From NCBI GenBank assembly GCA_003213275.1, contig QCNH01000001.1, positions 22,196 through 86,195 of the forward strand: a DNA stretch of 64,000 bases, given 5' to 3'. The stretch comes from Prochlorococcus sp. AG-424-M03. Lineage in GTDB: Bacteria > Cyanobacteriota > Cyanobacteriia > PCC-6307 > Cyanobiaceae. Position numbers and translations under genes: made by a program. Positions within the stretch are counted from its first letter, which is position 1; every line of letters starts with the position of its first letter. This document shows positions 1,089-51,838 of the stretch, one piece after another. Under the pieces are notes generated by a model. That model was not told the origin of the DNA. It ran no database searches and saw only the letters and a program-made list of their open reading frames with translations.

Positions 1089-1499
1089 ATGTTGCATGGT
1101 CTTCTTTGGTTACCATTACTATTAATCTTCGTTTTATTAACTGCGCTAGGATGGTTAGAAAGAAGAAGGCAAAATCTTTTTAGGATCTGGGCCAATGGTT
1201 CTGAACTTTGTAAGTTAGATAGTTCAGGTGCAGCATCCTTAAAAGATGGGGAATTAAAGTGGAGCGCATTTGAAGCTGGTACATTTGAAGAAAAAGATAG
1301 TTTCACAATCAAGAAACTAGAATTAGTTGAATTAATGGCCCTAACTTCAGGAGAAGCTCCTCTTACAAATGAATCTCAAGGAAAGTGTAGATTGAGATTA
1401 GTAGGTGATGGGAAAGAGATGGATGTACCATTTTCAGATGCAGAGCAGGCGAGAAAATGGATGGAGCAATTGATGGAAAAAGCTAGATGTGATTTGTGA
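1089..1499 (+). CDS. conserved cyanobacterial hypothetical protein, N-terminal membrane anchor
   Basis: 136-aa ORF with a hydrophobic N-terminus; overlaps the ftsQ start by 4 bp. Confidence 0.8.
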   Translation: MLHGLLWLPLLLIFVLLTALGWLERRRQNLFRIWANGSELCKLDSSGAASLKDGELKWSAFEAGTFEEKDSFTIKKLELVELMALTSGEAPLTNESQGKCRLRLVGDGKEMDVPFSDAEQARKWMEQLMEKARCDL

Positions 1500-2221
1500 A
1501 AAACAAGAACAAAATTAACAATAGAAGCTTTTTATTACTAATTTTATTTTTATTTTCAACAAGCTTAATAAGTCTAAAAACTTTAAAATATTTAAATATT
1601 AAGGATATTAAAATATCTGGTAGTAAATTATTTTCGCAAACTGATTTAGTAAATAATTCATCTTTAAAATTTCCAACTAGGTTAATATTTATCAAAACTA
1701 GGTTTTTAGAACAAGAGTTAAAACAAAATTTATCACTCAAGAATGTTTCGGTAAGTAGACAAATATTTCCTTTTGGTTTAAAAATTCAAGTTAAAACAAG
1801 AACCCCAATAGCTTATGGAGAGAGAATATTAAATGACGAAAAAATATTAGGCTACATTGATGCAGATGGAATTTTTATCAATAAACAAAATGTAGATGAA
1901 AAAAATCTAAATAAATTAACCATTCAAGTTTTTGGATGGGAAGAAAAATTTAAAAAAATATTATCTGAAATTCTTATTGCCCAAGAGAATTATAAATTTG
2001 AGGTAGTTAAGATCACATTTTCACCAAATGGATTTTTGACTATTGAGGAAAAAGATTTAAAAACAATCTTTCTTGGATTTAATCCAAATTTAATCAACTA
2101 TCAATTACAAATAATAGAAAATCTAAAAAATGAATTTCAAAAAAATAACTTTTCTAAAAAAATTGATAATATTGATCTTACTGATCCAAATAAACCAAAA
2201 ATAAAAGTGTTCAAACCCTAA
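1496..2221 (+). CDS. ftsQ: cell division protein FtsQ/DivIB (POTRA)
   Basis: single TM, POTRA-like segment (RQIFPFGLKIQVKTRTPIA), C-terminal IDLTDP; directly upstream of ftsZ. Confidence 0.88.
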   Translation: MKNKNKINNRSFLLLILFLFSTSLISLKTLKYLNIKDIKISGSKLFSQTDLVNNSSLKFPTRLIFIKTRFLEQELKQNLSLKNVSVSRQIFPFGLKIQVKTRTPIAYGERILNDEKILGYIDADGIFINKQNVDEKNLNKLTIQVFGWEEKFKKILSEILIAQENYKFEVVKITFSPNGFLTIEEKDLKTIFLGFNPNLINYQLQIIENLKNEFQKNNFSKKIDNIDLTDPNKPKIKVFKP

Positions 2222-5758: not shown

Positions 5759-6868
5759 ATGACAGATATCATAGTATTAATTTTATTTGTATTGTCTGGA
5801 GCTGCTTCAGGTTGGCTCGGGGTTGATTTATTGCCCATAGACATTCTCAAACAGGTATCTAATGTAGAAGGTTTTAGAATTGTTTTAGCAATAATAGGTT
5901 TTTTCATAGGATTAGCTGCTGGTTTTGTATTCCTTCAACTGAGAAAGACGTTTCTTGATCAAATAAGGACAATGCCCACTGATTTATTAATAAGTAGATC
6001 AGTTGGCTTAATATTAGGATTATTAGTTGCCAATCTCCTGCTTGCTCCAATTCTGTTAATCCCCATCCCTAGAGAAGTCTTTTTTGCGAAACCCTTAGCG
6101 GCTATATTAAGCAATATATTCTTTGGGGTACTTGGTTATAAGTTAGCGGATACACATGGTAGGACATTATTGAGATTATTCAATCCAAATAATACTGATG
6201 CATATCTAGTGAATGAAGGAATACTTCCAGCTGCAAGTCCAAAAATTCTAGATACAAGTGTAATTATTGATGGAAGAATAAATGGACTGTTAAGTTGCGG
6301 CTTGTTGGAAGGGCAATTAATTGTTGCTCAAAGTGTAATTGATGAATTACAAACTTTAGCTGATTCAAGCAGTAATGAAAAAAGGTCCAAAGGAAGGCGA
6401 GGTTTAAAATTGTTAAAAGAATTAAGAGATTTATACGGTAGAAGACTTGTAATCAACCCAACAAAGTATGAAGGTAATGGGGTAGATGAAAAGCTCCTTA
6501 AAATAACTGAGGATATGACAGGGACTTTAATTACGGCTGATTATAATCTCTCTCAAATTGCGGAAGTTAAAGAATTAAAAGTTATGAATTTGAGTGATTT
6601 AGTTATTGCTTTAAGACCAGAAGTGCAGCCAGGAGAATCACTAAACATAAAAATTGTAAGAGAAGGAAAAGAAAAAATGCAAGGTATTGGATATTTAGAT
6701 GACGGAACAATGGTTGTTATTGACGAAGCAAAGAATTATGTAGGTAGCAGATTAGATATTGTTATTACAGGAGCATTACAAACTCCCACTGGAAGAATGG
6801 TCTTTGGAAAACTGATAAATAATCCTGAGTCAAACAAATCTTTTAAATCACCAGCGACACAGGGCTAA
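5759..6868 (+). CDS. membrane PIN/TRAM domain protein (YacL-like)
   Basis: N-terminal TM helices, PIN motif LDTSVIIDGR...ELQ...D, TRAM motif GIGYLDDGTMVV...QTPTGRMVF. Confidence 0.92.
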   Translation: MTDIIVLILFVLSGAASGWLGVDLLPIDILKQVSNVEGFRIVLAIIGFFIGLAAGFVFLQLRKTFLDQIRTMPTDLLISRSVGLILGLLVANLLLAPILLIPIPREVFFAKPLAAILSNIFFGVLGYKLADTHGRTLLRLFNPNNTDAYLVNEGILPAASPKILDTSVIIDGRINGLLSCGLLEGQLIVAQSVIDELQTLADSSSNEKRSKGRRGLKLLKELRDLYGRRLVINPTKYEGNGVDEKLLKITEDMTGTLITADYNLSQIAEVKELKVMNLSDLVIALRPEVQPGESLNIKIVREGKEKMQGIGYLDDGTMVVIDEAKNYVGSRLDIVITGALQTPTGRMVFGKLINNPESNKSFKSPATQG

Positions 6869-46333: not shown

Positions 46334-46382
46334 AACTCAACCTGCTATTTTCTTATAAGGGGGAATTAAAATTCCTCAAGTT

Positions 46383-46454
46383 GGGCGATTAGCTCAGTGG
46401 TAGAGCACTACCTCGACACGGTAGTGGCCACTGGTTCGAATCCAGTATCGCCCA
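46383..46454 (+). tRNA. tRNA-Val (GAC)
   Basis: full cloverleaf; anticodon stem CTACC/GGTAG, loop TCGACAC; CCA not encoded. Confidence 0.96.
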
Positions 46455-46522
46455 TCCAAATTTTTGATGGCCTAGGTTATATCCACAGAAAATAATTTCA
46501 TTTTTTAGATTATTAAAAAAAA

Positions 46523-48618: not shown

Positions 48619-49773
48619 TTAGAAATTATTTTTTGAATAATTTTCGGATATTCTTTGATTAATTTTGGGAATGTTTTCTTTAAATTTAAAAAACCCTTTT
48701 TTGGCAAATTTCCAAGCAAATAAATCTTCATCCCTCACAAGATTAAATATATTTTTATTGTGTAAATTTTTAAACTCAATTATGAAATCATAATTTTCTC
48801 CTACTCTAGGATAAATAATGTCTATTTCATTAATATTTTTAAAAGTAACTGCTATTGAATATGGATCTATCTGTTCAACATTATCAAATTGTCCTACAAA
48901 TTCAGTGACCAAATCTTGTTTGAATCTCAAAACAGATTCAGATAATTTAATTTGTCTTTGTTCATTCTTTAGAAGGATAATAAATACTTTTTTATAGCTT
49001 GGAAGTAAATTTTTGAGGGTTGCAAGGTGCAGATCATTTTCAAACATAATCAGATAATCTGATTTAGGATCCATATTATTTTTATAAATCTCATCTTCTA
49101 ATGGTATTTGATTGGATTCCTCAAGAAAAATTTGTTTATTAATTATTTTTTCTGCATTAAATCTATTATTTGAAAATTTTCTGAGGTTTGATGATGAAAA
49201 AAGATATTGCTTCCCCTTAGTTTGTAATCCTCCTACCCATCTCCAGCTAAGGAGATTAGATGAAGCATCACCATCAAAAAGATATTTAAAGAAAAACTTT
49301 GCTCCCAATTGCCATGGGAGGCCTAAATTAAATATCCATGTACTCGCGAACCACATTCTCGTATGGTTATGCAAATAGTTGTACTGCTTTAATTCATGGA
49401 CCCAAGAATTAAAAAAATCTATTTCTGTATTGCCATTAATTGCACTTTCATATAGTTCATAATCAAAATCAAGATTTTCTTCTGAAATAAAATTTCGCCA
49501 AACTTTAGGTCTATTTTCCATCCACCCTTTCCAGTAAACTCTCCAAAATATTTCTTCAACGAATTTAGTTGAATTTTTGATTTTGTACTTACTTCTAATA
49601 TCATGAATCAGATCATATTCCGATAATATTCTATGCGTAATGAAAGGTGATAATTTTGAAACTGAACTTTCGTTATTTGGACCAAAATCAAAATTTCTTA
49701 ATTTTGTATAATCATTAATTTTATTTTGCGCAAAATTGTCCCAAATACTTTTAGCTTTTAATAAAAATGACAT
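48619..49773 (-). CDS. photolyase-family protein with the FAD domain at the N-terminus (inverted-topology class)
   Basis: SKLSPFI, EIFWR, YLHNHTRMWFAS, DGDASSN..SWRW in the N-terminal half; alpha/beta-like C-terminus; ATG at 49773. Confidence 0.85.
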   Translation of the reverse strand: MSFLLKAKSIWDNFAQNKINDYTKLRNFDFGPNNESSVSKLSPFITHRILSEYDLIHDIRSKYKIKNSTKFVEEIFWRVYWKGWMENRPKVWRNFISEENLDFDYELYESAINGNTEIDFFNSWVHELKQYNYLHNHTRMWFASTWIFNLGLPWQLGAKFFFKYLFDGDASSNLLSWRWVGGLQTKGKQYLFSSSNLRKFSNNRFNAEKIINKQIFLEESNQIPLEDEIYKNNMDPKSDYLIMFENDLHLATLKNLLPSYKKVFIILLKNEQRQIKLSESVLRFKQDLVTEFVGQFDNVEQIDPYSIAVTFKNINEIDIIYPRVGENYDFIIEFKNLHNKNIFNLVRDEDLFAWKFAKKGFFKFKENIPKINQRISENYSKNNF

Positions 49774-50047
49774 TTTTCTGTTAACTTTAAAGAATTTTTC
49801 ATTTGATAGAAATTTCAAAAATTAGCCTTCAAATTAATCCTTAAATTTTTATGTTTCACTTTTAAGTAAATATGTTTGATTGAAGTATTGAATTTAAACT
49901 CCTAATCCGTACATTTTATACTCTTAAATCGCGCACTGCGTAAGATGATATTTTATTGTCAATTACTTTTTAAATCTAGTTTGAATTTTCAAATCTTTAT
50001 TTAGATGATTTTTTCTAAAAGATTTCTAAATATTTATCAAAATTAAT

Positions 50048-50800
50048 ATGAATAATTTATTAGTTAGAGATATTAAGTATCTAGATGAACAATACAGATT
50101 AGGTGAAGGCATAATTTCCGATGATGCATTTAAGCAACTTCAGAAGCTTTTTATACCTGTTAATCCAAAATCTGACTATTTTAATCCAAAAAATAAATAT
50201 ATACTTTTGCCAAAATTAGCTAAAGGAAACTATAGAGAATTTTTGGGAAGTTTATTACCAAAAACAAGATTAAGCATTCAACCAAAAATTGATGGCTGCG
50301 CTATTGCAATTAGATATACAAATGGCAATTTTAAAAAAGCTATTACAAAAAAAGGATTTGATGTCTCAAGCAAAATTAAACAAATTAAAAATGTCCCCGA
50401 TTGTATTCCTATCAAACGAGATTTTCAAATTAGAGGTGAACTATACGCTACAAACCAATTTGCCAGAATTTCCCAAAGAATTACAAGAGAATACCTCAAT
50501 GATAAGAAAGGGATTGGAGAAAGTCTCAGCTTTTGCTGTTTCCAAATACTTAATGGAAGAATTAATCAATATGAAACCCTTAACTATCTTAAAAAATGTG
50601 GCTTCAGCACCCCTGAAAGTTACTTCACAAATCATACAAGCGAAATCCAAATATATAAAAAAAATTGGTTAGAGAGAAAAATATTTGCAAAATATCCAAC
50701 TAATGGGATAGTTATTAAAATAAATAGTAGGAAACTAAGGTTACTTAGAGAGACAAGTTTATCTCAAAATAATGAATGGCAATATGCAATTGAAAAATAA
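50048..50800 (+). CDS. stand-alone NAD-dependent DNA ligase adenylation domain (truncated LigA-like)
   Basis: domain-Ia-like YR.G..IISDD.F, motif I KIDG, motif III RGE, motif IV-like NGIVIK; ends before the OB/Zn/HhH/BRCT domains. Confidence 0.85.
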   Translation: MNNLLVRDIKYLDEQYRLGEGIISDDAFKQLQKLFIPVNPKSDYFNPKNKYILLPKLAKGNYREFLGSLLPKTRLSIQPKIDGCAIAIRYTNGNFKKAITKKGFDVSSKIKQIKNVPDCIPIKRDFQIRGELYATNQFARISQRITREYLNDKKGIGESLSFCCFQILNGRINQYETLNYLKKCGFSTPESYFTNHTSEIQIYKKNWLERKIFAKYPTNGIVIKINSRKLRLLRETSLSQNNEWQYAIEK

Positions 50801-50908: not shown

Positions 50909-51838
50909 ATGACTGCCACTATTTCAAGACCTAAAATTTCTAACTGGGGAACTTCTAATATTCCAAACCTTACAGGTAAAACAGCACTAATTACTGGTGC
51001 AAATAGTGGTCTTGGATACTACACAGCAAAGGCCTTAGCAGAAAAAAATGCTCATGTAGTAATAACTTCTAGATCGATTGAAAAAGCTAATCAAACCATC
51101 AAAAAACTTAAAGGTCTTAACCCTGAAGGAATATTTACACCTTTAGAATTAGATTTGTCAGATTTAAAAAATGTTGTTGAAGTTCGGTCCAAAATTTTTG
51201 ATGATTTTGAAAATTTGGATTTACTAATCAATAATGCAGGCATAATGCATCCGCCAAAAACACTTAGTGCCCAGGGATATGAAATACAATTTGCAGTGAA
51301 TCATCTGGCTCATATGCTTTTGACCCTAAAGCTTCTTCCAATTATTGAAAAAAAAGAGGAATCGAGAATAGTGACAGTTACTTCTGGTGCACAATTTTTT
51401 GGCAAAGTTGGTTGGGGAAATCTGAAAGCAGAGAACTATTACAACAAATGGGAATCTTACTCCAATAGCAAATTGGCAAATGTAATGTTTGCTTTGGAAC
51501 TAAATGAGAACTTAAAACACAAAAATATACTTTCATTAGCTGCTCACCCAGGAATTGCAAAAACAAATCTTTTTACTGCTCAAAAACCTAAACCTAGTCC
51601 AATTGAAACATTCTCCATGAAATTATTTAGCCCTATTTTTCAATCTGCTGAGATGGGTGCTTTACCTCAACTTTTTGCAGCTACTTCACCAGATGCAAGA
51701 GGCGGTGATCATTATGGTCCTAAGTTTAGTTTCAGAGGTCATCCAAAACTATCCCCTACCTCTCCTTTCGCAATTAACAAAAAAGAAAGGAAAAATTTAT
51801 GGGGAAAAAGCCTTGAAATACTTAGTAAATTCTTATAA
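50909..51838 (+). CDS. short-chain dehydrogenase/reductase (retinol-dehydrogenase-like)
   Basis: TGANSGLG, NNAG, VNHLAH, YSNSK (YxxxK), AHPG. Confidence 0.92.
   Translation: MTATISRPKISNWGTSNIPNLTGKTALITGANSGLGYYTAKALAEKNAHVVITSRSIEKANQTIKKLKGLNPEGIFTPLELDLSDLKNVVEVRSKIFDDFENLDLLINNAGIMHPPKTLSAQGYEIQFAVNHLAHMLLTLKLLPIIEKKEESRIVTVTSGAQFFGKVGWGNLKAENYYNKWESYSNSKLANVMFALELNENLKHKNILSLAAHPGIAKTNLFTAQKPKPSPIETFSMKLFSPIFQSAEMGALPQLFAATSPDARGGDHYGPKFSFRGHPKLSPTSPFAINKKERKNLWGKSLEILSKFL

Follow-up and report, generated by a model that had tools for sequence, protein, structure and literature searches.

Within the window, that is, the whole stretch of 64,000 nucleotides of Prochlorococcus sp. AG-424-M03 analysed here, a gene at 50048-50800 (+) resembles the adenylation half of the NAD+-dependent DNA ligase LigA. 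We read it, with a probability of about 0.6, as a vertically inherited, domesticated member of a mobile family, the product of which is most likely a nucleotide-binding pseudoenzyme and not a ligase, and in which a second product is apparently encoded. This gene and its orthologues are called class A below; class B designates a 249-aa paralogue, and island copies are those relatives that are borne on genomic islands.

Genes of this kind have been described before, under the name ND-Lig tr, as truncated NAD-dependent ligases of high-light Prochlorococcus (Hjerde, Williamson et al., 2020, bioRxiv 10.1101/2020.05.11.089284), and class A genes encode the same proteins: they are under 260 aa, comprise the Ia and nucleotidyltransferase (NT) parts only, form a clade separate from full-length LigA, and occur in genomes that have ATP-dependent ligases and no full LigA. 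According to this preprint, high-light Prochlorococcus without full LigA use ATP-dependent ligases, and the place where ligA used to be is taken by an ATP-dependent ligase; the truncated proteins were insoluble in E. coli. Since the findings of Hjerde et al. are reproduced here, what the first-pass annotation had noticed is already in the literature. The most abundant phototroph, high-light Prochlorococcus, is known for the peculiarity of replicating without LigA, and the truncated ligase belongs to this picture. New here are the separate, mobile-element-related family, the core synteny, the purifying selection, the loss of catalytic residues and the embedded +1 frame; residue decay, selection measures and embedded frame are absent from the preprint. 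The first-pass annotation, for its part, had overlooked the origin from mobile elements, the embedded frame and the presence, in the same genome, of paralogues that are catalytically intact.

The gene and its two neighbours are as follows.
48619-49818 (-): gene with a photolyase FAD-binding domain, upstream, divergently transcribed, conserved synteny partner
50048-50800 (+): class A stand-alone LigA-like gene (Ia-like helices and nucleotidyltransferase domain), 250 aa and stop, from ORF, profile and fold
50909-51838 (+): short-chain dehydrogenase gene, downstream, conserved synteny partner

The frame runs through 250 uninterrupted codons before its stop. Residues 73-231 belong to Pfam PF01653 (DNA_ligase_aden), with 69.4 bits for a gathering cut-off of 27. 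The model of full LigA, TIGR00575, gives 61.2 bits, far below its curated cut-off of 444.45, and over model positions 95-284 only; taking TIGR00575 and NF005932 together, the full-length models are matched only from about 95 to 290, with scores a seventh of their cut-offs, so that the protein does not count as a LigA. An AF2 model of the 250-aa protein (pLDDT 80.9, pTM 0.79, with the Ia segment of low confidence, below 50 for residues 1-22) retrieves, in a Foldseek search, crystal structures of LigA adenylation domains with E about 1e-14 and TM 0.62-0.70. As in the bacterial adenylation domains (PDB 1b04, 1ta8, 3jsl, 2owo), the fold, motifs I, III and IV and the position of motif V are present; in contrast with them, class A is about 65 residues shorter: Ia is reduced, and stretches are missing after R136 and in the region of E. 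coli residues 181-197. The C-terminal WQYAIEK aligns with LigA motif V and the ORF stops there; the short forms all end 0-2 residues past the motif V lysine site. No OB fold, Zn finger, HhH or BRCT domain follows the NT domain in the 50048-50800 ORF. Thus, the first-pass description of an intact 250-aa frame that ends around motif V and has none of the later LigA domains was accurate. That description had also named a nearby frameshifted ligA remainder as an observation that would count against its reading; a 108-bp spacer and then the dehydrogenase gene follow position 50800, and therefore no such remainder lies downstream. A promoter and terminator scan around the gene gave what chance would give in such AT-rich DNA. 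As for the photolyase-family neighbour, its FAD-binding domain corresponds to residues 85-215 of 399 and the N-terminal antenna domain is missing; between clades, this neighbour is 67-70% identical and the ligase-like gene 65-67%, an about equal evolutionary rate.

Class A belongs to the core genome and is syntenic. Photolyase-like and dehydrogenase genes flank it at 27-28 of 30 class A loci, as well as in a clade only 65-67% identical, and class B is likewise syntenic across the genus. This is contrary to the preprint, in which ND-Lig tr lie in genomic islands without synteny between strains (bioRxiv 10.1101/2020.05.11.089284); here, only the 251-aa copies are island-borne. In a metagenome collection, the 90%-identity cluster of class A has 2633 members, mostly of 249 aa. 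Among 51 genomes, class A is intact in 43, broken in six and cut by contig ends in two. Three of the six breaks are A7-to-A8 insertions in the run given below, one is another frameshift and two are nonsense codons. Because 12% of the orthologues are broken, selection on class A is weak or conditional. Class B, for comparison, is intact in 23 of 23 genomes, with a dN/dS of 0.19 and all catalytic residues kept.
50347-50353 (+): A7 homopolymer inside the class A gene; A8 in three genomes (G031, G072, G067), splitting the ligase-like frame (orthologue alignment)
In frame, this run reads A_AAA_AAA_G, a classic slippery heptamer, at which a predicted -1 shift would terminate two codons later.

Rates were compared in 20 genomes, each carrying all four genes. 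Class A shows dN 0.028, dS 0.078 and dN/dS 0.36; class B, 0.038, 0.21 and 0.18; the dehydrogenase neighbour, 0.019, 0.16 and 0.12; and the photolyase-like neighbour, 0.028, 0.17 and 0.17. The ratio of class A is thus high because its dS is low and not because its dN is high. On ten independent pairs, pN/pS is 0.37 and neutrality is rejected (P 2e-10); moreover, the alignment of orthologues shows a conserved stop position. The first-pass annotation had proposed to check dN/dS and the stop across strains and had foreseen, for a pseudogene, a ratio near 1. The deficit of synonymous change is concentrated in the middle of the gene, pS being 0.118 over codons 1-90, 0.032 over codons 91-207 and 0.109 from codon 208 to the end; class B has no such central dip (pS 0.19). 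Outside codons 91-207, class A is under purifying selection, with pN/pS between 0.2 and 0.4: within the clade the values are 0.33 (codons 1-90) and 0.23 (208-end), and between clades, where over 50% of the synonymous sites differ, 0.39 and 0.18.

The silent centre of the gene coincides with a second open frame.
50322-50672 (+): conserved ORF shifted by +1 nt, 116 codons and TAG (50670-50672); its second in-frame ATG, at 50361, begins a 103-codon core (orthologue comparison)
The 103-codon core is open in all 34 intact orthologues examined. Over nucleotides 272-619 of the CDS, the +1 frame is free of stops, with the same ATG and the same stop, in 30/30 close and 4/4 distant orthologues, and other members of the family show 10-23 stops in the corresponding frame. 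When each ligase-like protein was held fixed and its synonymous codons were redrawn, about six +1 stops were expected in the class A overlap, where none is observed (P(stop-free) <= 2e-4); outside this stretch, observed and expected numbers agree (10-11). Stops occur just 5' of the second ATG in several genomes, and none downstream of it. A database version of the embedded ORF that is only 47% identical has the same start and stop.

The pattern of substitution points in the same direction. Over the 3.7-kb locus, nucleotide diversity reaches its minimum inside the class A gene, at 50405-50704, and synonymous change in the ligase frame is 2-3.5-fold lower within the overlap. Sites were then classed by their effect in each frame, comparing the two class A clades: those silent in the ligase frame and replacing in the +1 frame evolve at a rate of 0.30 in the overlap, versus 0.49 and 0.62 in the flanks and 0.79 in class B, and those replacing in the ligase frame and silent in the +1 frame at 0.345. 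For the +1 frame, pN/pS is 0.44 within the overlap but about 0.8-1.1 elsewhere in the gene; for the third frame, it is about 1 within the overlap. Reduced synonymous change together with an open frame suggests a candidate overlapping gene, and part of the conservation of class A may serve the embedded frame instead of the ligase-like protein. We give even odds to the proposal that the central third is dual-coding, with a +1 ORF of 103-116 codons overprinted on the nucleotidyltransferase domain and selected across high-light Prochlorococcus, and with class B holding its decaying remains. In the corresponding stretch of class B, the +1 frame has 0-2 stops (P 0.01-0.03), and that of the island copies has 10; it looks as if the class B frame was once open and then lost. 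The product of the +1 ORF would be a small protein restricted to this lineage, Lys- and Leu-rich and predicted to be helical. Its AF2 model is poor (pLDDT 55.7, pTM 0.27); all 48 database matches correspond to the same locus, with no homologues elsewhere, and Pfam gives no match. The few +1 stops of class B genes, far fewer than expected (e.g., L063, 4995-5744 (-)), are mostly one shared stop at codon 148 of the alternative frame.

Other sources of the synonymous constraint were considered and set aside. An RNA structure finds no basis in the folding energy (MFE z-score +0.47 for 50319-50672) or in Rfam, where only a chance, sub-threshold match was obtained. The antisense -1 frame is open only over nucleotides 394-618 (shuffle P 0.085) and misses the synonymous trough at codons 101-120; it is therefore ranked below the +1 frame. 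A +1 frameshift fusion at the A7 run is disfavoured by a +1-frame stop between the run and the second ATG in at least five genomes.

This dual use of the DNA raises the question of what the locus is kept for. It is conceivable, but in our opinion improbable, that the ligase-like frame is a slowly decaying, functionless relic and that the embedded +1 ORF, or some other nucleotide-level element, is what holds the locus in place. The embedded 103-codon core is intact in four of the six genomes in which the ligase frame is broken, and the occurrence of frameshifts or nonsense codons in 6/51 orthologues, a whole-gene dN/dS two to three times that of the neighbours and the stepwise loss of catalytic residues (see below) would all be expected of such a relic. 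However, the 90 N-terminal and 43 C-terminal codons that lie outside the overlap have stayed open, under the constraint measured above both within the clade and across clades whose synonymous sites have diverged by more than half. The conserved stop also argues against a relic, as does absolute dN, in which class A stays below the intact paralogue. The reading that we prefer, that of a selected pseudoenzyme, would make the gene non-essential yet still selected, and the low synonymous divergence of its centre would be due to the second, +1-frame product apparently encoded there. If this frame is translated, the locus would be one of the rare instances in which overprinting of a gene is well supported in a free-living bacterium with a streamlined genome, and the retention of a half-dead enzyme gene would be explained. 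The possible dual coding of the class A centre is the part worth following up.

The residues of the window copy were compared with those of E. coli LigA (K-12 record) by alignment.
50075-50143 (+): Ia-like segment, residues 10-32, from alignment and a low-confidence model; equivalents of Y22 and D32 kept, Y35 replaced by Phe and D36 by Lys
50285-50296 (+): motif I, KIDG; K80 corresponds to Lys115, and the Gln that precedes the motif replaces Glu113
50432-50440 (+): motif III, RGE, residues 129-131; E131 corresponds to E173
50702-50719 (+): motif IV, NGIVIK; N219 stands for Asp285 and K224 corresponds to Lys290
50777-50797 (+): motif V-like C-terminus, WQYAIEK; Glu249 is aligned to the Lys314 site

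Lys115 of E. coli LigA is the adenylated lysine, and Glu113 contacts the adenine. The retention of KIDG and RGE and the Asn in place of Asp in motif IV (PTNGIVIK) had been read correctly at first pass. This Asp-to-Asn change is not, however, the sole deviation: the equivalents of D36, R208, K314 and E113 are changed too, which makes five replacements (D36K, R208N, D285N, K314E and E113Q), and the set of LigA catalytic residues is incomplete even if the equivalents of K115, D117, G118, E173 and K290 remain. The set comprises K115, D117, E173, R200, R208, D285, K290 and K314 for motifs I, III, IV and V, and Y22, D32, Y35 and D36 as the residues of Ia that bind NMN. LigA needs D36, R208, E113, K314 and D285 for its reaction with NAD+ and for adenylyl transfer. 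In the mutagenesis of Sriskanda and Shuman and of Zhu and Shuman, positions of the D36, R208, D285, K314 and E113 type reportedly proved essential, an essentiality that refers to E. coli LigA and may not transfer to the compact class A domain.

These replacements are ordered in the family. R208N and E113Q are present in all class A genes, D36K and K314E/Q were added in the clade of the window copy, and D285N in an inner subclade of it, so that motif IV has Asn in 30/30 close orthologues and Asp in more distant ones. The losses would thus be successive, beginning with R208 and E113, continuing with D36 and K314 and ending with D285. Such a stepwise decay of the active site, taken together with continued purifying selection, would be the signature of a pseudoenzyme. 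The class A protein retains the LigA fold as well as motif III, the nucleophilic lysine and the counterpart of Lys290, and it is most likely an NAD+/AMP-binding pseudoenzyme or scaffold in which self-adenylylation is feeble at best; catalysis would have been lost, and a binding or regulatory role would remain. It might be noted that Asn for Asp, and a Lys located one position past the motif V site, could still permit some chemistry.

Alternatively, class A could be an active NAD+-dependent adenylyltransferase working in trans, either as part of a split ligase, as in T5-like and PR1 phages, or as an end-adenylating or capping enzyme. We regard this as unlikely. T5-like phages do carry, side by side, a subunit A of 323 aa and a subunit B of 259 aa, and the solved PR1 heterodimeric ligase matches the AF2 model (9hu3_E). 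Isolated LigA adenylation domains self-adenylylate in vitro. The lysine nucleophile with KxDG, RGE and the Lys290 equivalent are all there in class A, and since no catalytic residue is missing from the island and class B copies, enzymatic activity is probable for the whole family; the equivalents preserved in island, class B and viral copies are Y22, D32, Y/F35, D36, K115, D117, G118, R136, E173, R208, D285, G286, K290 and K314. But the window copy has lost D36, R208, D285 and K314 from this set, no DNA-binding fold was recognized in a conserved neighbour, and the separate adenylation polypeptide of the phages (PDB 9hu3/9i5i), 26-28% identical over the whole query, has its subunit B encoded next to it, whereas no subunit B was found in high-light Prochlorococcus. 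In a positive-control genome that has full LigA, a T5-type subunit B query recovered the C-terminal half of this ligase; the own genome and three others of the same genus, near-complete (99-100%), gave no match. At E<=1, the LigA OB domain (PF03120) is missing from five genomes, namely the own one and those of four relatives that are near-complete (99-100%). The DNA-binding partner in trans that the first-pass annotation had envisaged was thus searched for among LigA-type proteins and not found. Its broader suggestion of a repurposed NAD-binding or adenylating protein fits better than a relic does; with four to five catalytic residues lost, however, efficient transfer of the adenylyl group is not to be expected. 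Having neither OB, Zn, HhH and BRCT parts nor a partner in the genome that provides them, the class A protein is probably unable to seal DNA.

The ligases of these genomes were surveyed as well. The own assembly (1.12 Mb, 63% complete) contains three short ligase-like genes and no long one. Full-length LigA was not found in 18 genomes of the genus, three complete ones included; two ATP-dependent ligases are present in 26/26 genomes, and every sampled cyanobacterium from other families has a full LigA. The statement that high-light Prochlorococcus rely on ATP-dependent ligases and have no full LigA is therefore borne out, and the suggested search for another ligA in the genome ended without a full-length one. 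In the family Cyanobiaceae, short forms occur in all sampled genomes of the same genus and in genomes of about 1.9 Mb that also keep a full LigA; elsewhere they are sporadic.

The origin of class A was approached by a search of 1.84 billion representatives, which gave 774 matches. The best are dozens of clusters (defined at 50% identity) of stand-alone proteins of 210-280 aa, down to 25% identity, and full-length LigAs enter this list only from E about 1e-14. The short proteins share internal deletions relative to LigA. In a maximum-likelihood tree, one clade (100/99) unites the full-length LigAs, among them those of E. coli, Synechococcus and low-light Prochlorococcus, and no short form falls within it; class A is itself monophyletic (100/99), its sister being a group in which the class B core copy and the island copies are each other's sisters. 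Inside the short family, a 100/99 clade joins class A with class B and the island copies, as expected from common descent. Since the tree separates full LigA from the short forms, the class A gene is not the stump of the cell's own ligA. An in-place truncated remnant of the replicative ligA, which would suit only the domain content and the lack of ligA in high-light genomes, is already contradicted and hardly conceivable, given this separation from picocyanobacterial LigA, the several internal deletions common to the whole short family, the coexistence of full LigA and short forms in low-light clade genomes, and the ATP-dependent ligase at the former ligA position (bioRxiv 10.1101/2020.05.11.089284). 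The earlier idea of a decaying relic of ligA is, as it was put, not supported by the tree, by the 43/51 intact and syntenic copies or by the purifying selection.

The mobile side of the family is visible in the surroundings of the island copies. Ligase-like genes of 251-254 codons overlap by 4 bp the stop of genes for tyrosine integrases of 405-420 aa (L001, L068, L069, L099), and island copies adjoin capsid-protease fusions or an HmaA defence helicase; further members of the short family sit beside VapE or DUF3987 primase-helicases, and a scan of viral contigs for a ligase-like gene returned one locus. The integrase-linked copies are genes of PICI-like tycheposons, among the hallmark genes of which a 'lig' is listed (Hackl et al., bioRxiv 10.1101/2020.12.28.424599). 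The tycheposon 'lig' belongs to the same family as class A, and the own genome has such a copy behind an integrase on contig 59; unlike it, the window copy stands outside an island, has no adjoining integrase and does not lie directly downstream of a recombinase, and has lost catalytic residues that island copies keep. Class A would accordingly descend from a stand-alone 'Ia + nucleotidyltransferase' family whose mobile members are the tycheposon 'lig' genes behind tyrosine integrases, and would have been inherited vertically and domesticated, and not left over from the cell's own ligA. If so, the 'half ligases' would be proteins of a mobile-element family whose translation is coupled to that of integrases in PICI-like islands and which entered the core genome by domestication at least twice, once as the catalytically intact class B and once as class A, drifting to a pseudoenzyme. 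The island copy, class B, class A of two clades and the degenerate copies of low-light genomes would then form a natural series for asking what an adenylation module does without its DNA-binding half. A role in defence systems was considered for three ligase-like copies and rejected, since no PADLOC model matched any of the three; only the helicase next to the copy on contig 59 was recognized, as HmaA.

Several related loci complete this description. On contig 59 of the own genome (L001), a 417-aa integrase (38-1291) is followed, with the 4-bp overlap, by a catalytically intact 251-aa ligase-like gene (1288-2043) and, at 2140-2847, by the start of the SNF2 helicase HmaA of the Hma defence system, a PICI-like/tycheposon module. 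On contig 65 (L002), a third ligase-like copy, of class B type and with the motif IV Asp kept, lies at 1285-1992 and is cut by the contig end; a further ligase-like fragment of 38 codons is at the start of contig 18. Two chromosomal short copies conserved in low-light genomes are even more degenerate than class A. A pair of degenerate short genes, of 210 and 228 aa, is conserved on opposite strands, about 4.5 kb apart (in L096 of genome G130, 1498-2130 (-) and 6177-6863 (+)), with the same layout in nine genomes of about 1.9 Mb that still carry full LigA, and both genes have lost the motif I Asp, the motif III Glu, the motif IV Asp and the motif V Lys. In the window itself, a tRNA-Val(GAC) gene is located at 46382-46458 (+), 3.6 kb upstream of the class A gene. 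Since tRNA genes are integration sites of tycheposons, the block from tRNA-Val(GAC) to the dehydrogenase gene could be an old, fixed island.
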